Source of the DNA: an uncultured Erysipelotrichaceae bacterium
GTDB taxonomy: Bacteria > Bacillota_I > Bacilli_A > RFN20 > CAG-826
Assembly (NCBI GenBank): GCA_902797795.1
Contig: CADBUF010000024.1
Span: forward strand, 1-60,446
Length of the DNA stretch: 60,446 bases
Direction of reading: 5' to 3'
Each line of letters starts with the position of its first letter. Position 1 is the stretch's first letter. The translations under genes and the position numbers were made by a program. The notes below the pieces were generated by a model that worked only from the letters and a program-made list of their open reading frames with translations, had not been told where the DNA came from and did not search any database. Below, piece by piece: positions 137-25,048 of this stretch.

Positions 137-2560
137 TTATTTTCTTTTCTTCTTTTTGAGGATTAATAATGCGCCAAGAGAGGCAACACTAACAGCGGAA
201 ATAGTGATAATAACAATTAACATAACGTTGCTATCTGTGCTTAATTCAGGCATAGAATTACCAACTACTACAACGTCTTGATTCCAAATAAAGTCATTAA
301 ATTCAGCTGTGCCGTATTTATTAACAATGTAACGATATTTGGCAATCATTGTGCCTAATTTGCCTTCGCCTTCGTAATCAAATCCGGCATCATGAATTGT
401 TTTTTGATCAGCGGCGGATAATAACTTGAATGCAGAGCTTTGACGTGACCATTCACCCTTTAATTTAATGAGATAATCATCACTACCTAAGGTGTTACAA
501 ACAACAGAGAGATCGTTATCAAATTTGGTTAAGAAGTCATCTAAATCTGCTGGAGTATAACCATTTTTTTCAACGGATAAATAGTTACCGTCATTTGTAT
601 TGAGATAGATGTCGAAGCATCCGCCAGCGTTGAATTTAAGATTTCCATCTTCTTCAGTTATTTCAGCACTAATACCTTCTGCGATATGTAATTTTTCAGG
701 ATCAATCGCAATATAGCCTTGTGATGGATCTTCATAAACTGCATCACCAAAATGATAGAATTTAACTTCTGCATTAGCAGCAAGTTCAACACCAGCGAGA
801 ACATATGTTCCTGCTTCTCCGGCTTTTTCTGGAGCTTTAATACCGTGTTTAACGTTCCAACCACAATGTGTACCAACTAAATAGTAGCCTTCTAAATGTC
901 CGGCCCATAATTTACCTGTTTCACCTTCAATATTGAGATATAAGGATCCACTAAAATCTTGAGCAAAGACTAGTTTGTTTTCGACTAATTCAACGTTAGT
1001 ATATTGAACGTCTTCTTTTGGTTCGGCGGCATATGTTGTTTTTTCTTCATATGGTGATTCTGAAACTTTGAATGTTAATTCGTCACCTGCTTTAAACGAT
1101 AACGCGGCAGACATAACTTCTGTTTCACCGTTAGGTGTCATTTCAACATCAGCAGCACCATTTAAGGAATAATAATATTTTGGTGCTTGAACTGGTTCAG
1201 AATGATCGAAAACATATAATTTTCCATCTTTAGAAGCAAAGATATCAACGGCCTTTTCGGTTTCAGAAGAATAATTACCTTCATCACCTTCAGCACCATT
1301 GATTGAGAACCATGTATCAACACCACTTAAGTGGCTACGAACTTTGAATGATTCACCTACAGAGACAGTGTAATTTAATAATTTGGCGTAGTTTTGCTCA
1401 TCCTCTCCGCCAGTTAATTCTGTAGCACCAGCGTACTTCCATTCGCTCTTACTACCAACAATGTAATAACCATCATGTTCTGGAACGTCTGGATCTACTG
1501 GTTCTGGTTCACCATGCTTTTCAACAGCTAAATAGTTAGAATCTTCTGTGTTGAGATAAAGGTCAAAATGTCCACCAGAATTAAATTTTAAATTACCATA
1601 TTCTCCTTCGATTTCAGCGTCAACGCCTTCACCAATGAGTAATTTATCAGAATTAATATTAATTGCGGAAGCTTTTGTATCATCAACTTTATGAAAGAAT
1701 TTGACTTCTGCATTATCAGCCAATTCAATATCAATTACTTCAAATGTTCCTGGATCTTCAGATTGTTCTGATGCTTTTGCAGCGTGCTTAATGTTCCATC
1801 CACTGTAAGAACCATTGAGATAATATCCTTCAGCAAAATTGCCTGCCCATAATTTACCTGTTGCACCAGAAATGTCTAAATATAAGACACCAGTATAGTC
1901 TTGGACAAAAACTAATTCGTCATCAACTAATTCAACAGTAGTTTCGGCAGCATCATCTTTAGGATTAACAGTGTAACTTTCTGCTGCCTTCTTAAATGTT
2001 AATTTGTCTCCAACTTTAAATGATAACTCAGCTGATTTAACTTCGGATGCGTTATGAGGAAGCATTTCAACATCTTCAGCACCATTTAATGAGTAGTAAT
2101 ACTTAACTTCAGGTACTGGTTCAGTATCAGGATTGTAGTCAGCCCAACCAGATCCATAAACATAAACTTTGCCATTATATTCAGTAGCAAATGTCCAGCT
2201 TGAAATAGGTTGTTCTTGGCTCTTCCATGTTTCACCATCGTATAATTGGAATTGCATCACACCAACTCCATTATATAAATCGGTGTAATCGACGACATAC
2301 AACAATTTTCCATCTTGAGTGTTGTCACCATTTCTAGACATCGTATATTGCATCCAGTTTTCAGCGTCTCCTTGACGATTAATGTTTAACTTAACCGTAT
2401 AAGAACCAACGACATTAGATGGAACTGCGTAATAAACTCTCGTCTCTGTGGCAGCCCCGACTTCCTTAACACCTGCTTTGCTTTGATGTGCACCAACGGC
2501 TACACCAACACCTAAAACCATAGCAAAAGCAGTTGTTAATATAAGTGATTTTTTCTTCAT
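137..2560 (-). CDS. Surface-anchored repeat protein (signal peptide plus C-terminal TM anchor), putative alpha-glucan-binding or scaffold protein
   Basis: 807-aa ORF with GGAG before the ATG. N-terminal signal peptide MKKKSLILTTAFAMVLGVGVAVGA. C-terminal hydrophobic helix followed by KKKKRK. Internal ~200-aa duplication flanks one GYYIVGSK module like those in 2920..6816. No catalytic motif seen. Confidence 0.85.
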   Translation of the reverse strand: MKKKSLILTTAFAMVLGVGVAVGAHQSKAGVKEVGAATETRVYYAVPSNVVGSYTVKLNINRQGDAENWMQYTMSRNGDNTQDGKLLYVVDYTDLYNGVGVMQFQLYDGETWKSQEQPISSWTFATEYNGKVYVYGSGWADYNPDTEPVPEVKYYYSLNGAEDVEMLPHNASEVKSAELSFKVGDKLTFKKAAESYTVNPKDDAAETTVELVDDELVFVQDYTGVLYLDISGATGKLWAGNFAEGYYLNGSYSGWNIKHAAKASEQSEDPGTFEVIDIELADNAEVKFFHKVDDTKASAININSDKLLIGEGVDAEIEGEYGNLKFNSGGHFDLYLNTEDSNYLAVEKHGEPEPVDPDVPEHDGYYIVGSKSEWKYAGATELTGGEDEQNYAKLLNYTVSVGESFKVRSHLSGVDTWFSINGAEGDEGNYSSETEKAVDIFASKDGKLYVFDHSEPVQAPKYYYSLNGAADVEMTPNGETEVMSAALSFKAGDELTFKVSESPYEEKTTYAAEPKEDVQYTNVELVENKLVFAQDFSGSLYLNIEGETGKLWAGHLEGYYLVGTHCGWNVKHGIKAPEKAGEAGTYVLAGVELAANAEVKFYHFGDAVYEDPSQGYIAIDPEKLHIAEGISAEITEEDGNLKFNAGGCFDIYLNTNDGNYLSVEKNGYTPADLDDFLTKFDNDLSVVCNTLGSDDYLIKLKGEWSRQSSAFKLLSAADQKTIHDAGFDYEGEGKLGTMIAKYRYIVNKYGTAEFNDFIWNQDVVVVGNSMPELSTDSNVMLIVIITISAVSVASLGALLILKKKKRK
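560..1180 (-). repeat. Copy 2 of the ~200-aa composite coding repeat (aa 461-667 of the 807-aa protein)
   Basis: KYYYSLNGAADVEM...GKLWAGHLEGYYLVG...GNLKFNAGGCFDIYLNTNDGNYLSVEKNG aligns colinearly with aa 153-350. Confidence 0.85.
1511..2104 (-). repeat. Copy 1 of the ~200-aa composite coding repeat (aa 153-350)
   Basis: KYYYSLNGAEDVEM...GKLWAGNFAEGYYLNG...GNLKFNSGGHFDLYLNTEDSNYLAVEKHG. Confidence 0.85.
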
Positions 2561-2607
2561 ATTAAAAATCTCCTTTTTTATATTGATGTAAAAATTAATT
2601 CTTTTAT

Positions 2608-2636
2608 ATTATAAACCTCTAATTTATGTTGGACAA
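2608..2636 (-). promoter_or_regulatory. Sigma-A-type promoter for 137..2560
   Basis: Read on the minus strand: TTGTCC, 17 nt, TATAAT. It lies downstream of the 2661..2678 terminator hairpin and upstream of the GGAG RBS. Confidence 0.45.
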
Positions 2637-2654
2637 CTTTATTATATAAAGAAT

Positions 2655-2680
2655 GCAAAAGCAGGGCTTAAACCCTGCCT
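2655..2680 (-). terminator. Intrinsic terminator ending the amylase-pullulanase-adhesin transcription unit
   Basis: Hairpin gcaggg-cttaaa-ccctgc, followed on the minus strand by ttttgcattcttt. Confidence 0.6.
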
Positions 2681-2704
2681 ATATGCGTATAAATATGATA
2701 TTGA

Positions 2705-2902
2705 TTAATCGTCATCAATCATGTCGTAATATAACGCTTCTTTTATATAACGATCATCATTTTTATAAGGAATGACAACACCTCTTAGTTTTCTATTAAA
2801 TCTTACTGGGTTTGGTATGAAAAACCCAACAACGATGAATAGTAAGGCTGCCCAAATAGCGGAATAGCAGATTGTTAGAATAACAATAGTAGCGACTCGC
2901 AT
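2705..2902 (-). CDS. Small hydrophobic protein (65 aa), hypothetical
   Basis: One long hydrophobic stretch and an acidic C-terminus. Lies between the stop of the 1298-aa gene and the terminator. No clear SD. Confidence 0.3.
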   Translation of the reverse strand: MRVATIVILTICYSAIWAALLFIVVGFFIPNPVRFNRKLRGVVIPYKNDDRYIKEALYYDMIDDD

Positions 2903-2919
2903 ATTTGTTTTAAATGATA

Positions 2920-6816: not shown

Positions 6817-7796
6817 TTGTTAAATTCTCCTTGTGGGACATCGGCCCAAATTCCATAGATAAAGACGAAGTCATTAGTAGTACCAACACAATATGTTGAT
6901 AAATCAATTAGGTCATCTTTAGTATCAATAATTGAGTGATCACTCCATCCGATGAAATATGGGAAATCATCAGTTGGGGCAGTTGTAGGAGTAGCAGGAA
7001 CTTTTCCACTTTCAGCAATTGGACGAGTTTGATACCACTTAAAGGAAGCAAGCATTCTTGTTCCGGTGGTGTCATCTTCATCAGCGAGGTTATAGTTGAT
7101 AAAGAAGACAACCCAAGCGTTCATTTCTTCGTCTTCATCACCAGGTCCGCCTCCTCCATTAGGAATAACAGTAATGGTACAAGTTGCGACTTTTCCATTA
7201 GCAGTAGCGGTAACAATAGCGGTGCCATCGGCATCAGCGATGACACGTCCACTATTATCAACACGAATAATGCTGGAATTTGTCGTATAAGTAACATCGG
7301 CAGGTTCACTTGTGGTGGCGACTAATAAATATTCTTCACCAATCATCATCGTGTGTGAGCTAGCGTTTAATCTAATAGTAAATTCATCAGGATCTTCTGG
7401 AATTTCTGGATCCACTGGATCAACTGGGCTATCTGGTTTAGGAACATAAATTGTACAAGCGGCAGATTTGTAACCAACCATCAATGTAATTACACAAGTT
7501 CCTCCACCCATCGCAGTAACAAAGCCATTATCAATAGTAGCAACTCTAGTATTACTACTTCTCCATAAAACGCCAGCGGCCACAGGTGTATCACCTACAT
7601 ATGTAATAATAGGATTAAGAGTAAAGCTCTCACCAATTGAAAGAGTCATGAAGTTGACATCAAATTCAACTTTTTCGACCATCGCATCGTTTACATTTAC
7701 TTCATTTGCGGTATCTTTTAAAACTGTGCCACAAGAAGCTAAAGGCGATAATAGAAGTAAAGAAGATAAGAATAATAATTTAGTGTTTTTCATCAT
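6813..7796 (-). CDS. Surface lipoprotein with two Big_2-like domains and a Listeria-Bacteroides-repeat-like C-terminus
   Basis: 327 aa. Lipobox SPLAS|C. GGAGG RBS. Pro/Asp-rich linker PVDPVDPEIPEDP. C-terminal FIGW...FIYGIW pattern. Confidence 0.85.
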   Translation of the reverse strand: MMKNTKLLFLSSLLLLSPLASCGTVLKDTANEVNVNDAMVEKVEFDVNFMTLSIGESFTLNPIITYVGDTPVAAGVLWRSSNTRVATIDNGFVTAMGGGTCVITLMVGYKSAACTIYVPKPDSPVDPVDPEIPEDPDEFTIRLNASSHTMMIGEEYLLVATTSEPADVTYTTNSSIIRVDNSGRVIADADGTAIVTATANGKVATCTITVIPNGGGGPGDEDEEMNAWVVFFINYNLADEDDTTGTRMLASFKWYQTRPIAESGKVPATPTTAPTDDFPYFIGWSDHSIIDTKDDLIDLSTYCVGTTNDFVFIYGIWADVPQGEFNK

Positions 7797-7811
7797 CGTT
7801 TCCTCCTATTA

Positions 7812-11033: not shown

Positions 11034-11046
11034 AATCATTCCTCCT

Positions 11047-11829: not shown

Positions 11830-11842
11830 CGTTCTATCCTCC

Positions 11843-14800
11843 CTATTTAGCGTAGGCTACAAATCCATGAGCAGGAATATTTGTAGCGCTGGCTCCATTA
11901 CCAAATGAGCCAATCACAGTCCAACCCATCTTTTGATAGGATTTAGCAGAATCAGTGTTATTAATGCAAACACAGACAGTGCGTGTTCCATCAGTAAATT
12001 CAAGGTAACATTCACCTTTTTCTTGGCCAGTAATTGAGCCGTAATTAGTGACATAACCATAAGTTGGATATTTTTCATGGTTCTTCACAGCACAGATGGC
12101 TTTGAAGTAATTGAGCATGGAATTCGAATCGTTAGCTTGTTCAGAAGCAGTAGCGAGGTTTTGGTTGTAGTAATCCCACTGGATTTCAATACCACCAAAG
12201 CTGAAGTTAGTGACTTCGCCTTCACCTTTAACTTTGCCCCATCTCATTGGTTGACGATACCATCTATCAACGTTATTGCCGTGGTCATCATAAGCCTTAC
12301 CAGTTGCGGCGTCTGGGACTAAGTCTTTAAGATTACCGGACATACCGAGTTCATCACCATAGTAGATCCAGCTCACACCTGGGTTAAGAATAGTTACGGC
12401 TGCGTAATATTTCGCCATATTCTTCGCGTACGTATCATTAACTTGGGCTTGCGTTGCATGTCCTTGTTCGACTTCTTTTTGGCTATGGACTTCCTTGTGG
12501 TTATCACCATTAACGCCTTTTGGAATGTCGTCATCATGTTGAGCAGCGTGGTTAATCAAACGATAAATATCGTGGTTAGAAGTAAAGGAACCATTGATAA
12601 GTCCGTTTGGACGATACGCTTTATATGTATTGATTGTGGATTGTAATTTATAACCGATTGAACTCTCATAGAATTGATTGAGGTTGAAGTAGGTTTGGAA
12701 GTCAAATTGAGAATCCATAGAGGCATAGAATGGCGCCATTCTTGCATCCCAACCATCAAAGTTTTCACCAACTAAGAAGCAATTTGGATAAGCAGATTTT
12801 AACGAACCAGCAAATTGTTTCCAGAAGTTGACGTTAAGAGTGCGGTCATAAGAATAGTCATTATCGGCATCGATATATTTTTGCATTTCTTCGTTCCAAT
12901 AATGTCTAAAGCCAACATCATAAACGATATCATGTTTGCTTAAGTTGAGATTGGTGTTAAGTTCACCTAATAAGTAGATGTGTTTGGTCGCATCAAGACG
13001 GAAACCATCAAGACCAAAACTTAACCAATATTTACACATATCAGTCATATAGTCTCTTGTTGCTTGGCTATTATAGTTAAGTTCAGCCATACCACTACCA
13101 AATTTACCAAAGTAGTAATAATCACTTTCACCGTCTTTGAACCAAAGTTCATTGAGTTTTGCATCGATTGGATCAGTTCCACCGATGGTTGCGGTTGTGA
13201 AGTTTTTGGATTGGTCAGCGGCCTTTTGATCACCTTCATAAGTGATATTACCATCCCAAACTCTCACTTTATCGCCTTTATATTTCCAAATGTACATGTC
13301 GCGGTAATTGATTTCTTTCCCGTTAACTTTTTCAACAACAGCGGCTTCGGATTTTTGGAATAAGACGTTACTCTTAGAGGTGTGGTTGATAACCATATCC
13401 ATGAGGACTTTCATGCCTCTGTGGTGAGCGTCATATAATAATTCTTGATAATCTTCGATAGTTCCAAATTTGGAATCGATACGATAATAGTCAGTAACAT
13501 CATATCCGTGATAAGAGTTACTTTCTTGAATTGGGGTAAGCCATAATACTTTGACACCTAAATTTTCAAGATAGTCGAGTTTGTTGATAATACCACGTAA
13601 ATCACCCATTCCATCTCCATCACTATCAGCGAAAGCAGGAACGAAGATTTGATAGCCAACACCTGGACGATCATCAAGGAATGTTGTCGAAGTTGCGATA
13701 CCCTTCTTATATTCGTCTTTTTCTAATAAGGTTGTGTCATCAACACTGACGTATTTACCAGTCTTATCAGAAATAGTTGGATTAACAAATGTTTGTGTAA
13801 TGCTTGAGGTGGAATAACCGCTAACGTTTCCTTGAACGCAGAAAACATGTAAGAAGCTATTTTTTCCTTCAGGCATAAGTTTCTTTAAGTCTTTAATGTA
13901 GATTTCTCCACCACCATCAGAGACCCAGTTTGTTTTACCAGTCATCTTGGTTTGGTCAACGATGAAGAATCCCATAGTTGCGGATTTCTTTTCCCAAAGA
14001 TCCCAGGAAATAAGTGGTGAATCAACACCAGTTTTTCCACCTGGAAGTTCTTCTAAGGAAATATCAACAGGAATAACAATACCGTGCTCGTCCATATAGA
14101 TTTCATCTTGGTCAACACCAGTCTTACCAGTGTCTTTGTTTGTTAAGAAACCATATGTTTGAGGGATAACACCTGCTAAGTTTTTAATTTCTGGATTAGC
14201 GCCCCATAAGCTACCTTCTAAGCTTCTTGGTTTTGATTGCCAAGCCCAGACAGCCCAGTTAGCGTAATCACTATTTGGTCTAAAATAATGGAAGTATATA
14301 TGTCCTGGTTTACTCCAAAGAGCAATTTGTTGTTCGTATTCACTATCGCCACCTTGTGCTAAAACGCTGATGGTACATTGTGCAGAAGAAGATTTTCCTT
14401 CAGCGTTAGTAACAGTGATAGTAACAATTGCAGTACCAGAAGAAATAGCAGTAACTAAACCGTTATCATCAACAGTAGCAACACCACCATTTGAACTTTG
14501 CCATGTTTGAGTAATAGCTGTACCAGTAACAGTAGCACCTAATTGAGTTTCATCACCGATTTCAAGAGTGGCATCTGGACGAGAGATATCAACATGGATG
14601 AAGTCTGGTTGAGAAGCATCAATAACGTGTAATGCACATGAAGCGGTAATTGTACCAGCAGAAACAACGATATTAGTTTCACCAGCTTTATTAACTGTGA
14701 CGGTTGCGCTATTTCCACTACCACTTACAGTAGCAACATCACTAACGGTGCTGCTCCATGATGGGTTAACAGTCATACCGTTATTCGTTGTGACTTGCGC

Positions 14801-15289
14801 ATTAAGGGTGAAACTTCTTGGACCACCATCTACAAGCGAGAATGTTTTGTTGGTCTCAGAAAGAATAATGGAAGTGACAATGGTTTGGCTGCCTCCACCT
14901 CCACCAGATCCACCACCGGATCCACCTTGTGTAAGAACACTGACGATGCAGCTTGCGGAAGCTCGATTACCAACTAAAGCAGTAACAACTGATGTACCGG
15001 AACTGACACCATATAAAGTGACAGTCGAACCAGTGCCAGTAAGACTCACGACTGATGGATCACTATTTTTCCAAGTGACTTCACTAGCAATCGCTGCACT
15101 AGCGCCAGTGATGACCACAGATAATTCTTGCTTTTGGCCAACATGTAAAGCTGCGGTTGGGGCAAGAGTTAAAGTGTAGTCTTCATAGGATGCTCCGGTG
15201 TCGTTAGATTTCGAGCTCACCAAATCGCTCGAGCATGACGAAATGAGCGCGCACGCGAGAACGAAAGGAACTAAAAATTTTCTTTTCAT
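11843..15289 (-). CDS. GH13 alpha-amylase family lipoprotein (amylase or neopullulanase-like) with 3 Big_2 domains and a CBM41-like module
   Basis: Motifs DGDGMGDLRGIINKLDYLENLGV, DMVINHTS, GFRLDATKHI, VGENFDG and FTSNHDI. Lipobox LISS|C. CBM41-like HYFRPNSDYANWAVWAW. Start at 15289 (GAGGAG 8 nt upstream) preferred over the ORF-track start 15313. Confidence 0.9.
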   Translation of the reverse strand: MKRKFLVPFVLACALISSCSSDLVSSKSNDTGASYEDYTLTLAPTAALHVGQKQELSVVITGASAAIASEVTWKNSDPSVVSLTGTGSTVTLYGVSSGTSVVTALVGNRASASCIVSVLTQGGSGGGSGGGGGSQTIVTSIILSETNKTFSLVDGGPRSFTLNAQVTTNNGMTVNPSWSSTVSDVATVSGSGNSATVTVNKAGETNIVVSAGTITASCALHVIDASQPDFIHVDISRPDATLEIGDETQLGATVTGTAITQTWQSSNGGVATVDDNGLVTAISSGTAIVTITVTNAEGKSSSAQCTISVLAQGGDSEYEQQIALWSKPGHIYFHYFRPNSDYANWAVWAWQSKPRSLEGSLWGANPEIKNLAGVIPQTYGFLTNKDTGKTGVDQDEIYMDEHGIVIPVDISLEELPGGKTGVDSPLISWDLWEKKSATMGFFIVDQTKMTGKTNWVSDGGGEIYIKDLKKLMPEGKNSFLHVFCVQGNVSGYSTSSITQTFVNPTISDKTGKYVSVDDTTLLEKDEYKKGIATSTTFLDDRPGVGYQIFVPAFADSDGDGMGDLRGIINKLDYLENLGVKVLWLTPIQESNSYHGYDVTDYYRIDSKFGTIEDYQELLYDAHHRGMKVLMDMVINHTSKSNVLFQKSEAAVVEKVNGKEINYRDMYIWKYKGDKVRVWDGNITYEGDQKAADQSKNFTTATIGGTDPIDAKLNELWFKDGESDYYYFGKFGSGMAELNYNSQATRDYMTDMCKYWLSFGLDGFRLDATKHIYLLGELNTNLNLSKHDIVYDVGFRHYWNEEMQKYIDADNDYSYDRTLNVNFWKQFAGSLKSAYPNCFLVGENFDGWDARMAPFYASMDSQFDFQTYFNLNQFYESSIGYKLQSTINTYKAYRPNGLINGSFTSNHDIYRLINHAAQHDDDIPKGVNGDNHKEVHSQKEVEQGHATQAQVNDTYAKNMAKYYAAVTILNPGVSWIYYGDELGMSGNLKDLVPDAATGKAYDDHGNNVDRWYRQPMRWGKVKGEGEVTNFSFGGIEIQWDYYNQNLATASEQANDSNSMLNYFKAICAVKNHEKYPTYGYVTNYGSITGQEKGECYLEFTDGTRTVCVCINNTDSAKSYQKMGWTVIGSFGNGASATNIPAHGFVAYAK

Positions 15290-15314
15290 AAAAATTTCTC
15301 CTCGATTGGACAAA

Positions 15315-15356
15315 TATACTTAATTTAAGTATAAAGGGATATTATTTGTAAATCAA
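15315..15356 (-). promoter_or_regulatory. Promoter (TTGATT-17-TATACT) overlapped by a perfect 9-1-9 palindrome (candidate operator)
   Basis: Minus strand reads TTGATT (15356..15351), 17 nt, TATACT (15333..15328). The palindrome TATACTTAA-A-TTAAGTATA spans 15315..15333, covering the -10 box and the expected transcription start. Confidence 0.5.
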
Positions 15357-15389
15357 TGTGTATACTACAAAAAAATAAGATTTTTTGTA

Positions 15390-16055
15390 TTAATTTTCAC
15401 TGTAGTTATGGACTTCAATCGCTGTTTCTCGGGTCGTTAATCCGTTCGTGGTGATTGAGTGATCAGTAACCACCATACCGAGGCTATCAACCTCTAATTT
15501 TTGAGAAAAAGCAAAGCCACTTTCACTACGGTGTTGATTGACTGAATAAACTAAAAGTTTATTCTCATAGTCAATATAAGTATAATCTTGGATGTCATAA
15601 ATGATGTCTTTAAGCATGTCTCCGACATACATTCCATATAAATATCCACCTTCAAAAGTCTTGCGATAAAAGAACTTGGAAACGAAATTATTGAGCACTT
15701 GTTCAGTGGTGTAAAAAGTCTTAACTCCATTAATGGTAATGTAATAATTTTCCTCTTCTTTAGTGAGAATTTCGTCATCAATTTTATCAATTTCACCACC
15801 GACATATTTTTCAATTCGATAATGATATTCGATGTTTTCTAAATCCCTAACATCAAAACTCATCGTTTCGATGGAGTGAACATTTCCTTCATAATCGTCT
15901 CTTTGATAATCAGCTCTTTGATAAGTTTTCATCGCTTCGGCAACAGAAAAAGAAGCGATAAAATAGCTAATATCGCTTCTCAATTCTTTTTGTTTACCAC
16001 ATGAAACAAGAATTGATACCGCTGATAAAGTTAGAGCGATAAAACGTTGTTTCAT
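15390..16055 (-). CDS. Lipoprotein of unknown function
   Basis: 221 aa. Lipobox ILVS|C. Last gene of the transporter operon. No family recognised. Confidence 0.75.
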   Translation of the reverse strand: MKQRFIALTLSAVSILVSCGKQKELRSDISYFIASFSVAEAMKTYQRADYQRDDYEGNVHSIETMSFDVRDLENIEYHYRIEKYVGGEIDKIDDEILTKEEENYYITINGVKTFYTTEQVLNNFVSKFFYRKTFEGGYLYGMYVGDMLKDIIYDIQDYTYIDYENKLLVYSVNQHRSESGFAFSQKLEVDSLGMVVTDHSITTNGLTTRETAIEVHNYSEN

Positions 16056-16056
16056 A

Positions 16057-16914
16057 TTAACTAAATTTGTATGAATAGCTAGAGAATAAGGCTAGTTGAC
16101 CTTCACTGATTTTGTTATAGTCATAATCAGTGGTTTGTAGTGATTCACTAACAAGCCATCCTAAAGGAGAATATTCAAAACGGATATCAAATCTTCCATC
16201 TATATATCCTTCTCCATTAAAACTATAGCAAGGAAGTGGGAAAGTAGGATCCCACTCAGGGGTTTCGTGACGTCCTTTGACATAATCAATATCAAGTTCA
16301 GGATGTTCGTCGTAATTCATGTAATAAGGATAATTATCAATACATACTTGAGTTCTGACGCTTCTTCCACCAATAACGAATCCACCATTATCGAGTAATT
16401 CGAAATATGGTTTGTTGTTTGAAGCATTAATCGAGCCTTTGGAGTCGTGCCAGGCAACAATTAAATTTTGTAGATTTGCAAAGGCGCAGGATTCGTTAAG
16501 TGTGCCATCTGCTCTAAGAGCGTAGAAGTTGTCTTTATTGATGTACATCGGCATTCTAAGCCAATATGAGCGAGACGCCATACCAAAGATTAAAATCTCG
16601 TCTTCGCTATAATCTGTCGCTCCTTTCATCATCATGGAATCAGCGGCGGCGTTAGCAAATCCGTCATTATATCTCGCATTTGCAACGTAAGAGACGCCAT
16701 TAGGCATATTATAGAAGCCACCATCTTTTTCGCTGATGGTTAAGATTTTTCCAGCAATATCAATGCTACCGACAACTTTATATAGTGGGTGTAGATGTTG
16801 ATTTTGAATTTGCATAACGCGAGAAAAGAGGGTTTCAAAAGAAACATCGTTTTTCCCCGCACAGCTAGTGAGTGTTAAGGGTATTAATAAGGATAGGAGT
16901 AATCTCTTTTTCAT
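16057..16914 (-). CDS. Lipoprotein of unknown function
   Basis: 285 aa. Lipobox LTLTS|C. Starts 2 nt after the malK-like stop. No family recognised. Confidence 0.8.
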   Translation of the reverse strand: MKKRLLLSLLIPLTLTSCAGKNDVSFETLFSRVMQIQNQHLHPLYKVVGSIDIAGKILTISEKDGGFYNMPNGVSYVANARYNDGFANAAADSMMMKGATDYSEDEILIFGMASRSYWLRMPMYINKDNFYALRADGTLNESCAFANLQNLIVAWHDSKGSINASNNKPYFELLDNGGFVIGGRSVRTQVCIDNYPYYMNYDEHPELDIDYVKGRHETPEWDPTFPLPCYSFNGEGYIDGRFDIRFEYSPLGWLVSESLQTTDYDYNKISEGQLALFSSYSYKFS

Positions 16915-16915
16915 A

Positions 16916-19471
16916 TTAATATAACCTAATATTCAATTCGTTTTCGTAGATTTGTGTCTTTTCTAAGTCTGGGATTAATTTGACTTTTTCGCCGAGTTGA
17001 ATATCTCTTTCTTGGTTGATATAAACCACGACCTTCTCACCGAAAAGTTCACCGGTGCATTTATACATCTTCACATCACCATAATTGACAAATGAGACCA
17101 CTTTGAATTCAAGACCATCTTTATCTTCTTTAAAACCATTATGTGGAACTTCCACTCTAAAGGTCTTAGTAAAGACTTTATTTCCTAAACCTTGAATAAT
17201 TCTATTAGTGATAGCATCTGGTATGAGTTGATATTTTGTTTCGTATTTGAAGAAGAAAATTAATTGAGCGTGTAAGAGATCATCTTCTTTTTTCTTAGCG
17301 AGTTCTTTTTCTTTATTTGCGTAAAGTTTAGAAGCGCTTTCAAGAGGATAATATTCTTCTTTAAATTTATCTTGTTCGCCTTTAATTTCAGCCTTCAAGA
17401 AGTTCTTGTTTTGAGAGAAGTGAGCTTTTAAGCCATTGAGTTCGGTCTCTTTATCAAATTCTAAAGAATTAGTCTTTCTTTCAATGTCGTTAGCCTTCAT
17501 TTGTGGGAAAGATTCTCTAAAGATAGAATAGGCGAGTCTTCTTTGACGACGAGATTCTCTATCGCGGTTATTCATCATCGATTGTTTATAATCGCGCTTT
17601 TCATCTTCTTTCATCTTTTTATATTGCTCGTTGATCTTCGCCATTTCATCTTTATAGATTTGTTTATGTTTGGCTTTAGCCTCTTTTACGTCACGAGAAT
17701 ATTTAGCTTTCAATTCCTTAAGCTTCAGATTTGCTTCATTTTCTTTAGTCTTAAGTTCAGCTTGTTTTTCTATAACTTGAGGAGCTTTTTGTTCTTGTAA
17801 AGCAGCAGCTTCAGCAAGTTTAGCTTCTTTTTCAGCAGCTAAATCAGCTTCAAGTTTTTCATAACGAGCGTTAACTTCATTCACACGGTCATCACGAATC
17901 TTATTAAATGATTCATTTTCAGTGACCGCAAAAGCAGTCTTAAGATTAACAAATTGAGCGAATAAATTATCACGTTCCGCTAAAGGAGAAGCGACAAGTT
18001 TATCGTTTTCATCTCTAAATGTTGCTCTAGAATAATCAACAGCGAATTTAATCTTATCGCCTGCTTTGACCTTCTCACCAACCTCAACAAATAATTCTTT
18101 ATCAGCGGCTTTAACAAGGGCAATACGTGCTTCTCTATGTTCTTCAACTAAAATAACTTTCGCGTCAACTTCACCTTCTCCAACTTTAAGCGCGTCAAGA
18201 GGTAAAGATACTGTGCCATTTTTAAGGAAATCTACTGGAATTGATTCTGGTTTAGTAGAAACACCAAATAAATCCATTTTTTCATTTTCAATGGTCACTG
18301 GAAGAACATTATGATCTGGGACAGGTGGAATAATAGTCATTTCGCTTTCTGCATCAAATAAATGAATCTTTTCAACATTGACACGTGCTTTAATGACATC
18401 ACCTGGGACATGACCGAGTTTATTAGGTGCTTTAATAATCACCGAGGTTGTTGATTCTCCACCTAAACCTTCGATTTCTTTTAAATCACCATAGATAAGG
18501 GTTTCATTACCGAGTTCTTCAAAGTGAGAGATGGTAACATCGACGATGTTGTCACCCTTGCTGAGTTCTTCTTCTTCAGCAGAAATTGCTTCACATCTAA
18601 AGCCTAATACGATTGGTAATTTGCCTTGTAAATATTTCTTTTCAGCTTTAAGTAATTGTTGCTTTGAGAGTTTTAATGGGGCTTGTTCACAATCACTCCA
18701 TTTCACATACACTCCATCTTTTTCTTCTTGTAAAGTAACATTAAAGAAATTCATTTGTGGAGTACCAATAAATCCAGCGACGAATTTATTGATTGGGTGA
18801 TCATATAAGTTTTGTGGAGTGTCGATTTGTTGAACACGTCCAAGTTTCATAACAACAACACGAGTACCAAGTGTCATAGCTTCGACTTGGTCGTGAGTAA
18901 CATAAATAAATGTTGTCTTTAATTGTTGATGGAGTTTAGAGATCATGCTTCTCATTTGACCTCTTAATTTCGCATCTAAGTTCGATAATGGTTCGTCAAG
19001 AAGCATAACTTTAGGATTACGAAGAATCGCTCTTCCTAAAGAGACACGTTGTCTTTGACCACCAGACATCGCTTTTGGTTTACGGTCTAAGTAATCGGTT
19101 AAACCAAGAACATCTGCTGCCCACATCACCTTTTCATGAATTTCAGTTCTTGGAACCTTACGCAATGTAAGACCAAAGGCCATATTTTCATAAACGGTCA
19201 TATGTGGATAAAGAGCGTAGTTTTGGAAAACCATTGCGATATCTCTATCTTTTGGTTGCATATCGTTAACAAGAGTGTCGCCGATATAAAGTTCACCACT
19301 AGAAATATCTTCTAGACCAGCAATCATTCTTAATGTGGTTGATTTACCACAACCAGAAGGACCAACGAAGACGATAAATTCGCCATCTTTAATGTCCATA
19401 TTAAAGTCGCTAACAGCCTTATGTCCGTTAGGATAAACTTTGTAAATGTGTTCTAATTTTAGTGAAGCCAT
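16916..19471 (-). CDS. malK: MalK/MsmX-like sugar ABC transporter ATPase with a ~470-aa C-terminal extension
   Basis: Walker A GPSGCGKST, signature MSGGQRQR, Walker B MLLDEPLS, H-loop THD. A MalK-type regulatory domain runs to ~aa 378. Beyond it lie extra OB/TOBE-like segments and a long K/E-rich predicted coiled coil (851 aa total). Confidence 0.9.
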   Translation of the reverse strand: MASLKLEHIYKVYPNGHKAVSDFNMDIKDGEFIVFVGPSGCGKSTTLRMIAGLEDISSGELYIGDTLVNDMQPKDRDIAMVFQNYALYPHMTVYENMAFGLTLRKVPRTEIHEKVMWAADVLGLTDYLDRKPKAMSGGQRQRVSLGRAILRNPKVMLLDEPLSNLDAKLRGQMRSMISKLHQQLKTTFIYVTHDQVEAMTLGTRVVVMKLGRVQQIDTPQNLYDHPINKFVAGFIGTPQMNFFNVTLQEEKDGVYVKWSDCEQAPLKLSKQQLLKAEKKYLQGKLPIVLGFRCEAISAEEEELSKGDNIVDVTISHFEELGNETLIYGDLKEIEGLGGESTTSVIIKAPNKLGHVPGDVIKARVNVEKIHLFDAESEMTIIPPVPDHNVLPVTIENEKMDLFGVSTKPESIPVDFLKNGTVSLPLDALKVGEGEVDAKVILVEEHREARIALVKAADKELFVEVGEKVKAGDKIKFAVDYSRATFRDENDKLVASPLAERDNLFAQFVNLKTAFAVTENESFNKIRDDRVNEVNARYEKLEADLAAEKEAKLAEAAALQEQKAPQVIEKQAELKTKENEANLKLKELKAKYSRDVKEAKAKHKQIYKDEMAKINEQYKKMKEDEKRDYKQSMMNNRDRESRRQRRLAYSIFRESFPQMKANDIERKTNSLEFDKETELNGLKAHFSQNKNFLKAEIKGEQDKFKEEYYPLESASKLYANKEKELAKKKEDDLLHAQLIFFFKYETKYQLIPDAITNRIIQGLGNKVFTKTFRVEVPHNGFKEDKDGLEFKVVSFVNYGDVKMYKCTGELFGEKVVVYINQERDIQLGEKVKLIPDLEKTQIYENELNIRLY

Positions 19472-19486
19472 ATGACTTACCTCCTA

Positions 19487-20344
19487 TTAACCTTTAACCG
19501 CACCACCGGCAATACCTTCAACGTAGTATCGTTGTAGCCAGAAGAATAATGCGGTAATCGGGATTGATACCATCACTGCTCCAGCGCAGAATACTCCAAA
19601 TTCCGACATATCGGTGATCTTATATAAACCAACCGCGACTGTGTAATCAGCACTAGTCATCGTACGAGATGAACCAGCGATGAAATTTCCGAACATGAAG
19701 TCTCCCCAAGGAGAAGTAAAGGAAATCAAAATTGTGTAAATAATAATTGGTTTTGAAAGTGGAAGAATAATTCTCCAGAAAACCGTATTTTTGCTACCAC
19801 CGTCAATCATCACCGCTTCATCTAAGGATCTTGAAACAGTATCAAAGAATCCTTTAGCGATGTAGTAGCTCATCGCACTACTAGCGAAATAAACGATGAT
19901 CAGGGAGAACATTGACCCATCAATGCCAAGAAGCTGCAAGAGATAATAGTTAACAAGCATTCCTAGGAAGCCTGGGAACATACCAAGAATAAGAATTAAC
20001 TTCATTAATCCTTTGCGTCCTGCAAATCTAAGTCTACTTAAAGCGTAAGCAGTGGCTAAAACAAAGATTGTTTGAAGGACTGCGGTCGCTAAAGCGATGA
20101 GGAATGTATTAAGCCACCAATTAAGGAATGGACGAGTATCACTAGTAAATAAAGTTTTATAGTTATCAAATGTCCATTCAACAGGGAAGATACTCTTTGG
20201 ATTAGAGACCTTCGCAAATGATTGCATAATCAAATAGAAGAATGGGAAGAGCCAAATAACGCTGATGACTGTCAAAATGACATAGATGAGTACTCTTTGG
20301 CTTTTCTCAGCGAATCTTTTACTCGCAAAATGTTTTTCTGCCAT
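19487..20344 (-). CDS. malG: Sugar ABC transporter permease, MalG-like
   Basis: 285 aa, polytopic. EAA loop SLDEAVMIDGGSKNTVFWRIILP. Confidence 0.85.
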   Translation of the reverse strand: MAEKHFASKRFAEKSQRVLIYVILTVISVIWLFPFFYLIMQSFAKVSNPKSIFPVEWTFDNYKTLFTSDTRPFLNWWLNTFLIALATAVLQTIFVLATAYALSRLRFAGRKGLMKLILILGMFPGFLGMLVNYYLLQLLGIDGSMFSLIIVYFASSAMSYYIAKGFFDTVSRSLDEAVMIDGGSKNTVFWRIILPLSKPIIIYTILISFTSPWGDFMFGNFIAGSSRTMTSADYTVAVGLYKITDMSEFGVFCAGAVMVSIPITALFFWLQRYYVEGIAGGAVKG

Positions 20345-21879
20345 TATGAGAAGTCCTCCTCGTTCTTAACTGCGCCAGTACGTCCATAGAAGATAAGTGA
20401 GAAGAAGGCGATAACTAAGAAGACGAGTACGCCAAGCACACACGCCATCGCATAGTTCTTCGTCGAACCACTTTCCATAGACATCTTATAAATCCAAGTA
20501 ATAAGTAAGTCTGTTTCTCCAGGGTCACCATAACCGAGTTTCTTATCAAGAGAGAAGCTAGGTTCACCATGAGAGAGAAGATAAATGATGTTGAAGTTAT
20601 TAATATTACCGACGAATTGAGATAACAAATATGGTCCAGTAATAAATAACATATAAGGTAAAGTAATGGATCTATACATCTTGAAGGAACTTGCTCCATC
20701 AATACGTGCAGATTCATATAAGTCTTCTGGAATGTTCATTAAAATACCAGAAGAAATAAGCATTGTGTAAGGAACACCTACCCACGTATTAATAACAATG
20801 ATTATCACACGTGCGAGTGTTGCATTTTGGAATGGAGAAACTTTAGCAGGAACCCAACCAAATTTCACAAATAAATCGGTCAAGAATCCGTTAACATCAA
20901 GCATTCTATTAATGAGCATGAGGGAAACGAATTGAGGAACAGCAATTGTGAAAATAAGGACGGTTCTCCATAATTTCTTTAATTTAATTCCTTTTTTATT
21001 AATTAATAGGGCAACAACCATACCTAAGAAATAGTTGGTAAAGGTAGCAATTAATGCCCATAAAAGTGTCCAGGCTAAGATTTTAAAGAAGATACCAACA
21101 ACATTAGCCCCTCCATTAGAAAATCCCGAGAAGAGAAGACTATAGTTATCAAATCCAACCCAGTCAAATAAAGTAATTCTTTCAGCACCGTTATAGTTAG
21201 TAAAGCCAATCGTCACCATGAAAATAATTGGAATGATGGTGAAGGCTACTAAACCAACTAAAGGTACCGCTAAAAGTAAAGTGTGATATTTGCTATCCAC
21301 TAAATCTTTAAAGAATTGTTTATTGTTAGACATCTTACCGACTAAAGTATTGTCATATAATGATTTAGCGTCTCTGATAGAGAAATACCATAATACGACA
21401 AATAAAAGTGCCAAGAAGATGGTAACAATTGAATAAAGTAAAATTGTAAAGGAGTTGTCGCCAGTAGCAAAGGTACCATCAGCGACACCACTAGAAGGAT
21501 CAACCATGTAATGGCTGGTCAATGATAAAGTTCCGAGCGTACCAAGTTTTTGTAAGTACGGTAGACCAGTTCTAATAAAGAACCAAATAAACACAACCTC
21601 ATAGAGAAGGTATAAAATTCCGCGAGCGATTTCCTTGTGGAATATTTGATATAAACCAAACACTAAGAAGTTTCCTCTGACCCACCAGTTGCCTTTTGTC
21701 ATCGCTTTTTCAAGTGTTTTAAAAGGAACTGAGAGGGTGTGATTCCAGAATTTAAGAAGCTTTAAAGGAATGCTCTTGAACCAATTCAAGATACCTTTGC
21801 CAAAGTTTCTAAAGAAATTTCCTAAATCAACAAGGACTCTTTCAGGTTTAGTTAGTGATAAATATTGAAGTTTAGTCAT
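20344..21879 (-). CDS. malF: Sugar ABC transporter permease, MalF-like (long N-terminal region)
   Basis: 511 aa, polytopic. EAA loop DLYESARIDGASSFKMYRSITLP. 1-nt overlap with the downstream permease. Confidence 0.85.
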   Translation of the reverse strand: MTKLQYLSLTKPERVLVDLGNFFRNFGKGILNWFKSIPLKLLKFWNHTLSVPFKTLEKAMTKGNWWVRGNFLVFGLYQIFHKEIARGILYLLYEVVFIWFFIRTGLPYLQKLGTLGTLSLTSHYMVDPSSGVADGTFATGDNSFTILLYSIVTIFLALLFVVLWYFSIRDAKSLYDNTLVGKMSNNKQFFKDLVDSKYHTLLLAVPLVGLVAFTIIPIIFMVTIGFTNYNGAERITLFDWVGFDNYSLLFSGFSNGGANVVGIFFKILAWTLLWALIATFTNYFLGMVVALLINKKGIKLKKLWRTVLIFTIAVPQFVSLMLINRMLDVNGFLTDLFVKFGWVPAKVSPFQNATLARVIIIVINTWVGVPYTMLISSGILMNIPEDLYESARIDGASSFKMYRSITLPYMLFITGPYLLSQFVGNINNFNIIYLLSHGEPSFSLDKKLGYGDPGETDLLITWIYKMSMESGSTKNYAMACVLGVLVFLVIAFFSLIFYGRTGAVKNEEDFS

Positions 21880-21898
21880 AAATAAAGCCTAAAACTAA

Positions 21899-23707
21899 TT
21901 ATGCTCCCCAACTTTCATCAAGTTCGGTTAATAAAGCAAGAGCAACACTTCTTGTTAATGGGGTACCAACAGCAACATATTTATTTAAAACTGTGGTTAA
22001 TGTCTTACTGGTGTTATTGAAGTATTCATCACCAAAGACAGAAAGAAGTAGTGTTGAACCAGATTCTTTTTGTGCGTTTAAAGCAGCGATATGAGGTTCG
22101 TTAGCGCAGATGCTTTGTAATGTTTTTAAAGTAGGTTGTGTTTTTTCAACTGAATAACGATAATTTTGTGCATATTCAGATGTTAAGAATTGACAAATAA
22201 TGTGACAAACATTCTTTTTGTTTGTGTCAACGATTGAGTTATTAACACCATAGAATTTGTAACCTAAATAGGTGCAAAGTCTTGTGGTTTTTTCATCATC
22301 AATGTAAGGAACTGGCGCAACAGCGTATTTATCGCCCATTCTTTCTTTGAATTCTCTAACGTTAGAGGTATCAACGATAGTCGCGATAGCTTGGTTATCA
22401 CCTTCGCCTGGTGCTTCAGTTACTGCAGAGCTCCAGAATTCTTGACTCATAATGCTACTTGCAAGAAGAAGCGCGTCTTGGCCTTTTTCACATCTGAAAT
22501 TAGAACTACATGTATATGATGTGGTTTTTGGAGTAATTGTGAAATAGGATTCACCACCAGAATAGCTGTGTAAAGCACTGGCAGCGTAGAATCCGTTAGT
22601 GAGATTGTAATTGAAGTGCCAATCTTCACCACGGCTTGTACAAGCTTTATATAATCCACTGAGGGTGCTAATTTCAGAAGGATCTTTAATGACTGTTTTA
22701 TCATAGAACATGACAACACCATTATCAGCCGCAAATGGATAACCCTTAACGGATTGATTCCAAGTACAAGCGTCAACAGCGCCATCGAGCATTGAGTATT
22801 TGTAATCGCTATAAACGTTTCTACTAACAGGGGCTAAGGCACCGATGTTATTTAAGTTCATAGTTTGATCGGAAACGAATGGGAAGATGTCTGGTCCACT
22901 AGCGGCACCACTTGGGAAGTTAGCAACACCATCACCATCTTCAAAATCTTTATATGAGAAATTAACTGAGCTACCAGTTAATGCGTTGAAGCTATCACAT
23001 AAGGCTTTAACAACACCAGCAGATTTAATTGGTCTACCAACAACGATATCACCAGTTAATCCTAAGTTTCTTCCAACATAGATATCTAAACCGGTTGGGT
23101 CTTCTGGATCAACACTACTAGCGGTAACAGTAACGTCACAAGTCTTTGTAATACCGTTACTACATTCACCAGTAATAGTAGCGCTTCCTTCACCTTCACC
23201 AGTAATCATACCAGTTGCATCAACAGAGCAAACCGCTGGGTTGCTACTTGTAAATGTAACGGTTGAGGAAATTGGGCTAGCAGAATATGAAAGCTTAATG
23301 GTTTGTCCAACTGTTAAACTAGCAACAGGGGTTAAACTGAATACTTTCGCATCTGGATCAACGTTGACATTCTCAACGATAATTGTACAGTCAGCATAAG
23401 CTCCACCCATCGCGGCGGTAACTGTGGCTGTACCTTCTCCTAAAGCGGTCACAAAGCCTGAATTTGGGTTGCGGAAATACGCAACGTTCTCATTACTTGT
23501 GAACCAACGAACTGGAGTGTTCATGTGTCCTTTGTCAACTGATACCGTTAATTGCTTTGTTTCACCAGAGTTCATTCTAATAACAGAAGCAGAGATTTGA
23601 ATCTTGGCTTCGGTTTGACTACTAGAACTTGAAGAACATGAGGCAGTAGAAAAAGCAAGTAAGCTAGCACAAGCCAACAAAGAGAAATTTAGAGCTTTTC
23701 TTTTCAT
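21899..23707 (-). CDS. Sugar (probably maltodextrin) solute-binding lipoprotein with two N-terminal Big_2 domains
   Basis: 602 aa. Signal ends AFSTAS|C. Aa 34-195 form two Big_2-like domains. Aa ~205-602 look like a family-1 SBP (GPDIFPFVSDQ..., KGYPFAADNGVVMFYDK). Confidence 0.8.
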   Translation of the reverse strand: MKRKALNFSLLACASLLAFSTASCSSSSSSQTEAKIQISASVIRMNSGETKQLTVSVDKGHMNTPVRWFTSNENVAYFRNPNSGFVTALGEGTATVTAAMGGAYADCTIIVENVNVDPDAKVFSLTPVASLTVGQTIKLSYSASPISSTVTFTSSNPAVCSVDATGMITGEGEGSATITGECSNGITKTCDVTVTASSVDPEDPTGLDIYVGRNLGLTGDIVVGRPIKSAGVVKALCDSFNALTGSSVNFSYKDFEDGDGVANFPSGAASGPDIFPFVSDQTMNLNNIGALAPVSRNVYSDYKYSMLDGAVDACTWNQSVKGYPFAADNGVVMFYDKTVIKDPSEISTLSGLYKACTSRGEDWHFNYNLTNGFYAASALHSYSGGESYFTITPKTTSYTCSSNFRCEKGQDALLLASSIMSQEFWSSAVTEAPGEGDNQAIATIVDTSNVREFKERMGDKYAVAPVPYIDDEKTTRLCTYLGYKFYGVNNSIVDTNKKNVCHIICQFLTSEYAQNYRYSVEKTQPTLKTLQSICANEPHIAALNAQKESGSTLLLSVFGDEYFNNTSKTLTTVLNKYVAVGTPLTRSVALALLTELDESWGA

Positions 23708-23774
23708 AAGGCACCTACTTCTTTTAAAACTGAGAGATACTACTAACTAACGAGTAATATCTAAATACAAAATA

Positions 23775-23803
23775 AGTATAACTTTAGCGCTCGCATAACG
23801 CAA
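23775..23803 (-). promoter_or_regulatory. Promoter of the transporter operon (TTGCGT-17-TATACT)
   Basis: Minus strand reads TTGCGT (23803..23798), 17 nt, TATACT (23780..23775). The spacer contains a GAGCGCT palindromic core. The -10 is followed by an imperfect ATAC-N7-GTAT inverted repeat. Confidence 0.4.
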
Positions 23804-23835
23804 CGGATGAATTTATTTTTTTATAGGCGTATACT

Positions 23836-25006: not shown

Positions 25007-25048
25007 ATTTTAAGATATAAATTATTATATAATTTTGATGATAAAAAA

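Follow-up and report, generated by a model that had tools for sequence, protein, structure and literature searches.

A putative membrane-tethered starch-harvesting locus with SusE/F-like binding proteins in an uncultured rumen lineage of Bacilli

One important question raised by contig CADBUF010000024.1 of an uncultured Erysipelotrichaceae bacterium (60,446 nucleotides, analysed at full length and hereafter called the window) is whether the 12 consecutive minus-strand open reading frames (ORFs) listed at positions 137-23707 form a single system for the use of alpha-glucans, and what its large proteins without enzymatic motifs contribute to it. A first-pass annotation, made from the letters alone, had proposed that the genes serve the capture, degradation and import of alpha-glucan. 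We give a probability of about 0.8 to the reading of this region as a chromosomal alpha-glucan (starch or glycogen) utilisation locus, in which surface capture and cutting would be followed by import of maltodextrins through an ATP-binding cassette (ABC) transporter. The proposal is borne out by a solute-binding protein whose relatives are of the MalE type, by two GH13 enzymes with intact motifs and by binders similar to SusE/F and X25. The analysis shows which domains are present, that the catalytic motifs are intact, that the lipid or transmembrane (TM) anchors and the gene order are conserved, and that the binders are homologous to SusE/F/X25; starch binding, surface exposure, co-regulation and the roles of the lipoproteins o285, o221 and p327 and of an extension of the MalK-like ATPase are what we infer. 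Coordinates are collected in Table 1.

Three proteins of the locus, p1298, p807 and p327 (1298 + 807 + 327 = 2432 amino acids, aa), carry no enzymatic domain, in agreement with the approximately 2,400 residues counted before as lacking an enzymatic motif. As a single protein, p807 matched nothing in Pfam, NCBIfam or the PDB sequences. No starch module was detected by Pfam/NCBIfam in p807 or in the repeats of p1298 even at E<=1-10, and searches of the PDB sequences with single proteins and with a profile of the D repeat (see below) returned nothing. The link to SusF therefore came only from the family profile and the predicted structure. An AlphaFold2 (AF2) model of p807 was built from a 29-sequence alignment, with a mean predicted local distance difference test score (pLDDT) of 69 and values above 80 at residues 150-350, at residues 364-452 and in a helical bundle. 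Comparison of this model with the PDB by Foldseek gave exactly four matches at E <=1e-3, all of them non-catalytic starch binders: SusF (4fe9, E 2.9e-9), SusE (4fem, E 1.1e-6, and 4fch, E 3.4e-6) and the X25-2 domain of Sca5 from R. bromii (7rpy, E 3.2e-4). By sequence, the p807 family profile matched SusF with an E of 5.4e-5, the GYYLVGxxxxW module being aligned to two SusF modules, and a faint precomputed match to PF26120 (CBM_1st_SusF) was also found. These matches identify p807 by homology as a putative SusE/F-type binder, TM-anchored and not lipid-anchored.

The modules of p807 follow the order signal (..LGVGVAVGAHQ), domain A, a pair formed by B and the X25-like C, the X25-like D, a second pair (B' and the X25-like C'), a 4-helix bundle (673-749) and a TM helix (778-806) ending in KKKKRK. 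When domain sub-alignments were compared with hhalign, modules C (241-352), D (356-456) and C' (554-668) were homologous at 97-99.5% probability. The C-terminal part of p1298 (727-1298) consists of five tandem X25/SusF-like repeats of 106-118 aa, which matched modules D and C of p807 at 99.6% and 96.7% probability, respectively, and by this profile comparison are the same module as in p807. Residues 495-660 of p1298 were aligned to module C at 74% probability (E 2.8e-5), indicating a probable divergent X25-like module. Counting modules C, D and C' of p807, the p1298 repeats and this middle module, the locus thus appears to encode 8-9 X25/SusE-F-like modules, in addition to a CBM26 module in the lipoprotein p260 (27.3 bits, E 4e-6, just below the Pfam cutoff of 28.1). 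Among the aromatic positions, no variation was seen at W255 in the p807 family or at W67 in the D repeats, where an aromatic residue is also kept at column 19. The X25 modules of SusE/F and of Sca5/Sas20 bind malto-oligosaccharides via aromatic platforms (PMC9112005). Homologues of p807 (88 among the matches listed, all metagenomic) include several fused to CBM26, X25_BaPul_like, AMPK1_CBM, CBM20 or SusF_SusE. This supports the assignment of the 'motif-less' proteins as SusE/F- and X25-like multi-module proteins, predicted to bind starch.

The two enzymes of the locus were examined by their domains, motifs and nearest solved relatives. The amylase (Pfam Alpha-amylase E 4e-73, with three Big_2 domains) contains the motifs DMVINH, GFRLD, GENFD and NHD, and its catalytic regions I-IV are intact. 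Alpha-glucosidases (5zcc and others) are on top of its nearest PDB sequences, with the amylases 1wza, 7jjt and 9fz2 close behind and SusG (3k8k) at E 1.5e-39. Translation probably begins at the ATG at 15289 (1148 aa) and not at the TTG at 15313, since a GAGGGG ribosome-binding site is found at the former. The CBM41-like module ascribed to this protein corresponds to a PUD match of 23 bits, below the cutoff of 25. In the pullulanase, the NCBIfam model TIGR02104 scored 465 bits (E 3e-139), below its equivalog cutoff of 504.5, and a CBM_48 domain was detected by Pfam. Its best PDB matches were the pullulanases 7lsa, Amy12 of R. bromii (9qfa), 6jeq and 2wan, with Amy10 and Bacillus/Paenibacillus pullulanases also near. 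The motifs FNWGYNP, DVVYNH, GFRFD, GEGW and CHDN are present, so that the sequence shows CBM48, intact GH13 regions I-IV and a YNWGYDP-type motif (FNWGYNP), as in a type I pullulanase (GH13_14).

The upstream half of the locus contains the transporter genes. All nearest PDB sequences of the binding lipoprotein are MalE or maltodextrin-binding proteins (5m28, E 2e-11; 6dts, 2fnc and 1elj), and its lipobox is conserved in the metagenomic contig L014. An SBP_bac_8 protein, two BPD_transp_1 permeases and an ATPase with an OB_MalK regulatory domain were found, as in CUT1-type MalEFGK2 systems. Residues 1-378 of the ATPase scored 456 bits with the UgpC model of NCBIfam, above its cutoff of 432, and 395 bits with the MalK equivalog, below its cutoff of 568. 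The remaining ~470 aa (residues 379-851) form an extension composed of a beta segment, a K/E-rich helical region of ~220 aa and a C-terminal beta domain, for which no Pfam or PDB match was found. Only 15 homologues of this extension were retrieved, all at >=50% identity and all metagenomic, and by these matches it is lineage-restricted and limited to close relatives; it is split off in L014 (ORFs of 541 aa and 279 aa) and continuous in the metagenomic contig L016. The domain calls of the earlier note (solute-binding protein, permeases, MalK-like ATPase, GH13 amylase, CBM26-type lipoprotein, pullulanase and Big_2) all hold in Pfam/NCBIfam.

Two orphan lipoproteins are encoded in the same operon. 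o285 had no Pfam, NCBIfam or PDB sequence match and has at least 100 homologues among the matches listed, all from metagenomes or metagenome-assembled genomes (MAGs). Its AF2 model is confident (pLDDT 86, predicted template-modelling score 0.85), and in Foldseek no PDB match was obtained at E <=1e-3, the best one, the LolA superfamily, being not significant (E 0.086). o285 may therefore be a new fold. No family match was found for o221 in Pfam, NCBIfam or the PDB sequences, a match to a cohesin chain (E 0.16) being not significant, and there was no detectable relationship between o221 and o285.

In order to follow the extent of this gene arrangement, related loci were collected by a scan of GTDB species representatives, which returned 13 loci, all from rumen MAGs labelled as uncultured Erysipelotrichaceae (RUG...), Bacilli bacterium (RGIG3320, ruminal_MAG) or Bacillales bacterium (UBA2753, UBA2450). 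As determined by tblastn, the order amylase, p260, pullulanase, p327, p1298, p807 is kept in 7 of the 13, with the lowest identities (~25%) among the binders and the highest (64-67%) among the enzymes; gene order is conserved over at least 9 related loci at about 25-81% identity. Both p260 and p327 are syntenic in 8 loci, the latter at 34-49% identity. The contigs L014 and L016 add the upstream half, consisting of a divergent 159-aa ORF followed by the genes for the solute-binding protein, MalF, MalG, long MalK, o285, o221 and amylase. In nine relatives, malQ (GH77), glgB and a glucan phosphorylase gene are located after the p807 homologue with zero to two genes between, and these downstream genes are 75-91% identical among the nine. 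Hence, the functional locus probably reaches beyond coordinate 1 of the window, judging from these relatives. An additional paralogue of the p807 type, which is shorter (~505 aa) and shares the C-terminal anchor, was observed in L001 (12696-15545) and at corresponding positions of L002, L006-L008, L010, L011 and L013, and in L001 a 378-aa unassigned gene lies between the p807 homologue and malQ.

The way in which the exported proteins are held was analysed next to their Ig-like domains. Eight proteins have an N-terminal signal peptide with a lipobox-like Cys, the sequence pattern of bacterial lipoproteins, and the Cys is conserved in the homologues from related loci. The lipobox of the pullulanase (LAMC) is atypical at -1, its homologues having LPAC or LPGC, and LVGC of p260 is conserved in homologues. 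In p807, a signal/TM segment is found at the N-terminus, and a TM segment, with KKKKRK after it, at the C-terminus. With lipobox Cys residues in eight proteins and a C-terminal TM segment in p807, the earlier statement that every exported component has a lipobox Cys or a TM anchor holds throughout. So does the reported absence of LPXTG, SLH and wall-binding motifs: no LPxTG, SLH, LysM, choline-binding or other wall-binding Pfam family was found in the locus proteins by Pfam and motif scan. The description of the locus as entirely Ig-stalked had to be abandoned. An iterated local profile counted two Big_2 domains in the binding protein, three in the amylase, two in p327 and five, probably six, in p1298, and none in the pullulanase, p260, o221, o285 or p807, so that Big_2 is present in only 4 of the 9 exported proteins. 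Where they occur between lipid anchor and functional domains, the Big_2 arrays are most simply explained as spacers.

The C-terminal end of p807 (residues 655-807) is an anchor module in its own right, in which a four-helix bundle is followed by a TM helix and a poly-Lys tail. Matches to it were obtained in 325 representative protein clusters, without exception at the very C-terminal end, and its carriers include proteins with Flg_new, CBM26, SusF_SusE, Endonuclease_1 and subtilase domains; the SusF_SusE matches in Pfam come from relatives that share this module with p807. The module is lineage-specific and is conserved together with a signal motif, LGVGVAVGAH, at the N-terminus. Outside the locus, a surface protein of 1442 aa, which combines Endonuclease_I, Big_2 and Big_3 domains with a C-terminal TM anchor, shows the same anchoring style as the starch locus. 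BLAST of the C-termini of p807 and this nuclease aligned only the TM segment, and the link between both anchors comes from the Endonuclease_1 proteins among the carriers of the module. Such a nuclease on the membrane recalls the way in which Mollicutes-like bacteria scavenge nucleotides.

Taken in order, the process would begin with starch or glycogen being captured at the cell surface by the membrane-tethered p1298, p807 and p260, which would contribute the 8-9 X25/SusE-F-type modules and CBM26. p1298 would be lipid-anchored and project on 5-6 Ig-like domains, p807 would be held by its C-terminal TM helix and p260 would bring the CBM26 module. The lipid-anchored GH13 endo-amylase and type I pullulanase would then cut alpha-1,4 and alpha-1,6 bonds beside the membrane. 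The malto-oligosaccharides released could be taken by the MalE-type lipoprotein on its two-Ig stalk and imported via the MalF/MalG/MalK2-type ABC transporter. In the relatives, and probably here, disproportionation and phosphorolysis in the cytoplasm would follow, by MalQ (GH77) and the glucan phosphorylase encoded downstream.

Several points weigh against this alpha-glucan reading. With the Pfam cutoffs for starch-binding families, the window proteins pass only CBM48, CBM26 falling 0.8 bit short, and none of them gave a match to X25_BaPul_like. The tryptophans seen in the family consensus are missing from domain A of p807; the assignment of this domain to CBM26 has as sole basis its alignment with the CBM26 position of a homologue, and hhalign comparison with the CBM26 of p260 gave a probability of 3%, which is not significant. 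The AF2 model of p807 leaves out the second B copy (455-555). No DNA-binding domain that would reveal a transcriptional regulator was found by Pfam in 137-25495, and the cytoplasmic genes are out of view, with the window and the independent contigs ending just past p807. Another function considered for the non-catalytic proteins is that p1298, p807 and p327 are general adhesins to plant particles, protozoa or host surfaces that are only incidentally linked to starch genes. Big_2 arrays are typical of adhesins and invasins, no Pfam match to a starch module is above threshold in these three proteins, and the p807 gene is predicted to be a separate transcription unit. However, the only fold and profile matches are to the starch-binding SusE/F and X25, homologues are fused to CBM26, X25 and CBM20, and their genes stay strictly syntenic with those for amylase and pullulanase in 7-9 divergent genomes, which makes an adhesin role very improbable.

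We consider it just as improbable that the locus serves mainly the turnover of the cell's own glycogen, or the scavenging of soluble maltodextrins or pullulan-like oligomers, instead of an attack on dietary starch in granular or polymeric form. It is true that glgB and phosphorylase genes follow the locus in relatives, that glgABP and pulA have been reported from genomes of the RFN20/RF39 type (PMC7301438), and that the amylase is also near oligo-1,6-glucosidase and alpha-glucosidase-type GH13 enzymes. Nevertheless, export and anchor signals are present in both enzymes and in all binders, which would therefore act outside the cell, arrays of eight to nine binding modules in tandem are typical of proteins that capture polymers or granules, and the transporter is an importer. 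A different matter is whether the parts assemble at the surface into a defined complex of several proteins, Sus-like or amylosome-like and coupled to the transporter, in which o285, o221, p327 and the helical bundle of p807 would be assembly parts. The order of all twelve genes, including those of three proteins without assignable function, is tightly conserved, the genes for o285 and o221 lie inside the transporter operon, and the bundle/TM module of the 325 clusters is kept across proteins that differ in their other domains. Against this, Pfam found no cohesin, dockerin or other known assembly module (the cohesin match of o221 mentioned above is not significant), and it would suffice for function if the proteins were placed together on one membrane. 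The alternative is a set of tethered proteins that act independently; a defined complex seems rather unlikely to us. Still less likely is a more far-reaching version, in which a single membrane-embedded, transporter-coupled assembly of the SusE/F-like binders, both enzymes and the MalE-type receptor, held together by the anchor module, o285/o221 and a cytoplasmic coiled-coil extension of MalK, would represent a third architectural solution for capturing starch at the surface, beside Sus and the amylosome in a probably wall-less gut lineage of Bacilli.

The alpha-glucan reading was finally compared with known systems. With the Sus of B. thetaiotaomicron (SusCDEFG) the locus shares a lipid-anchored surface amylase, SusG being among its nearest solved relatives, non-catalytic multi-module binders homologous to SusE/F, and the presence of capture, hydrolysis and import genes in one locus. 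Unlike Sus, it would import by a MalEFGK-type ABC transporter across a single membrane, without the TonB-dependent transporter SusC or SusD; its proteins would be anchored in the cytoplasmic membrane, either through a lipobox or through a TM segment at the C-terminus, a pullulanase for debranching would be added at the surface, and 8-9 X25-like modules are encoded, compared with two in SusE and three in SusF. No TonB-dependent receptor, Plug or SusD family was found by Pfam in the 12 proteins or the flanks, and for lack of SusC/D the locus is not a member of Sus. The label 'Sus-like' can thus be kept as a functional analogy with partial homology (SusE/F and SusG parts), but not as membership. 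The label 'amylosome-like' does not apply, since Pfam detected neither cohesin nor dockerin. Similar to the R. bromii amylosome (Sca5, Sas20, Amy12 and Amy10) are the structure of the X25 modules (7rpy; PMC9112005), the pullulanase, whose nearest solved relatives include Amy12 and Amy10, and the association of non-catalytic binders with GH13 enzymes; in contrast, cohesins, dockerins and sortase signals are missing here, the parts are individually membrane-tethered and not scaffolded, and all genes are clustered with a transporter.

A Gram-positive polysaccharide utilisation locus (gpPUL) has been defined by at least one enzyme that degrades polysaccharides, a system for carbohydrate transport and a regulator of transcription in one locus (Sheridan 2016, PMC5320581). 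The GH13 amylase, the pullulanase and the MalEFGK-type ABC system provide the enzyme and transport parts, and, as in the gpPULs of Roseburia/Eubacterium rectale, extracellular GH13 enzymes and an ABC oligosaccharide importer are combined in one locus of a monoderm. No regulator was found, so that the locus does not strictly belong to the gpPULs; it also differs from them in its lipid or TM anchors, which replace wall anchoring, and in its large genes for SusE/F-like binders. The amylase Amy13K of E. rectale is LPXTG-anchored. The MalEFGK2 importers of E. coli, Lactobacillus casei (MalE1) and Thermotoga (MalE1/2) likewise have a MalE-family protein, two BPD_transp_1 permeases and an ATPase with the MalK OB domain, whereas here two Ig-like domains are placed between lipid anchor and binding fold, the ATPase has a 470-aa lineage-specific extension and two orphan lipoprotein genes are found in the operon. 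No description of an equivalent locus in Mollicutes-like lineages was found in the literature searched, the coverage of which was incomplete. The locus varies a known strategy and is not a new kind of system.

Distances between the genes are mostly -4 to 19 nt, with larger ones at 15314-15389 and 2561-2919 (Table 1). The count of thirteen genes given before is reduced to 12 solid co-directional ORFs; the remaining 65-aa ORF is annotated as a gene in same-strain assemblies, but a homologue was sought in all related loci and none was found, and the corresponding gap in the closest relative, L001, only 189 nt, is too short to hold it, for which reason it is treated as doubtful. Both interruptions that had been taken for promoter gaps exist, the second holding a terminator-like hairpin as well as a promoter-like site. 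The hairpin with its T-run, the promoter-like site and the good ribosome-binding site upstream of the 807-aa gene suggest that this gene is probably a transcription unit of its own.

Table 1. Position and content of the genes and other features of the window.
Feature	Position	Strand	Content or basis
Maltodextrin-type solute-binding lipoprotein, 602 aa	21899-23707	-	Lipobox Cys24; Big_2 41-98 and 127-179; SBP_bac_8 235-531 (Pfam)
MalF-like ABC permease, 511 aa, ~7 hydrophobic segments	20344-21879	-	BPD_transp_1 E 1.5e-16; 67% identical in L014
MalG-like ABC permease, 285 aa, 6 hydrophobic segments	19487-20344	-	BPD_transp_1; 73% identical in L014
MalK/UgpC-type ATPase, 851 aa	16916-19471	-	ABC_tran and OB_MalK (Pfam); residues 1-378 are a complete MalK
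Extension of the ATPase	16916-18337	-	Residues 379-851
Lipoprotein o285	16057-16914	-	Lipobox LTSC18; conserved lineage-specific family; position kept in L014 and L016
Lipoprotein o221	15390-16055	-	Lipobox LVSC19; 32% identical at same position in L014
Intergenic gap upstream of amylase gene	15290-15389	-	Promoter-like site TTGATT, 17 nt, TATACT (15356-15328); consensus match only
GH13 alpha-amylase lipoprotein, 1156 aa from TTG	11843-15313	-	Three Big_2, unassigned ~220-aa region, catalytic domain 555-1082
p260 lipoprotein, 260 aa	11047-11829	-	N-terminal domain, Gly-rich linker, CBM26-like starch-binding module 163-233
Type I pullulanase lipoprotein, 1075 aa	7812-11039	-	Unassigned ~300-aa N-terminal region, CBM48, GH13 catalytic domain
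p327 lipoprotein, 327 aa	6813-7796	-	Two Big_2 and 113-aa C-terminal domain without assignment
p1298 non-catalytic lipoprotein, 1298 aa	2920-6816	-	5-6 Big_2, X25-like module ~495-660, five repeats 727-1298
Doubtful 65-aa ORF (13th gene)	2705-2902	-	One hydrophobic segment; ORF inspection
Terminator-like hairpin	2657-2678	-	GCAGGG / CCCTGC, 6-nt loop, then TTTT; read from sequence
Promoter-like site	2636-2608	-	TTGTCC, 17 nt, TATAAT; promoter scan; ribosome-binding site AAAGGAG next, ahead of 807-aa gene
p807, SusE/F-like surface protein, predicted starch binder, 807 aa	137-2560	-	AF2 model, Foldseek, family profile
C-terminal anchor module of p807	140-598	-	Residues 655-807
Divergent intergenic region	23708-23835	.	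Between binding-protein operon and 159-aa membrane ORF; ORF positions
159-aa multi-pass membrane ORF	23836-24315	+	Divergent from binding-protein operon
Bac_transf sugar transferase (218 aa) and 148-aa lipoprotein	24350-25495	-	Between starch locus and nuclease gene
Surface nuclease, 1442 aa	25591-29919	-	Endonuclease_I, Big_2, Big_3, C-terminal TM anchor

Downstream of the 807-aa gene, coordinate 1 of the window falls within a terminator hairpin (AAGAGGGA TTCG TCCCTCTT, with Ts after it), and three GTGGGGA-like motifs are present within positions 1-90. The window and independent assemblies with an identical p807 (e.g. L017, 12425-12614) all stop 79-190 nt past its stop codon, which suggests a repeat that breaks assemblies just downstream. 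At the other end, the homologue of the divergent 159-aa membrane ORF is 36% identical and located at the same position in L014, where a gene for a membrane-bound XRE-type helix-turn-helix protein adjoins it upstream of the locus; no homologue of this gene was found in the window. The sugar transferase and the 148-aa lipoprotein encoded between the starch locus and the nuclease gene hint at surface glycan or capsule synthesis. The flanks are ordinary chromosome, with gatA/B, ligA, a UvrD-type helicase, an aminoacyl-tRNA synthetase, tsaD, two tRNAs and the tmRNA. A mobile island was considered and rejected, given this housekeeping context and the lineage-wide synteny. The GC content is 0.36-0.39 over the starch locus and the nuclease gene (1-30000) and 0.29-0.34 in the housekeeping part (40000-60446), a difference that could reflect either a composition bias of surface proteins or an ancient transfer.

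The source of the DNA is probably an uncultured rumen member of Bacilli near Erysipelotrichales/Mollicutes-like lineages. This is in line with the earlier guess of an Acholeplasma- or Erysipelotrichia-like host, which fits the NCBI labels of the related MAGs. Both these labels and the finding that only lipid and TM anchors are used agree with gut or rumen Bacilli of the RFN20 type; for the GTDB placement of the related MAGs, one paper gives the genus-level label UBA2450. TGA is a stop codon in the window (GC 0.29-0.39), since the ORFs are read correctly with table 11. Most RFN20 genomes are reported to lack mraY and murG and to use TGA as stop (PMC7301438). If the host is wall-less, all-membrane anchoring is to be expected and is no peculiarity of this locus.

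Several parts of the locus can be put to the test: the approximately nine X25-like modules, the anchor module with its 325 clusters, a well-modelled lipoprotein without a match among solved structures and an unusual MalK. The anchor module, o285/o221 and the MalK extension leave some room for a transporter-coupled assembly, unlikely as we consider it. The occurrence of SusE/F-type modules outside Bacteroidota, on plain membrane anchors and together with an ABC importer, bears on the evolution and spread of the Sus paradigm. Bacteroidota, Ruminococcus, Bifidobacterium and Lachnospiraceae are the groups usually regarded as the starch degraders of rumen and gut. The present analysis suggests that an uncultured, small-genome lineage of Bacilli, known only from MAGs, may have a complete and dedicated surface system for harvesting starch, which would make it a candidate primary starch degrader in grain-fed ruminants.

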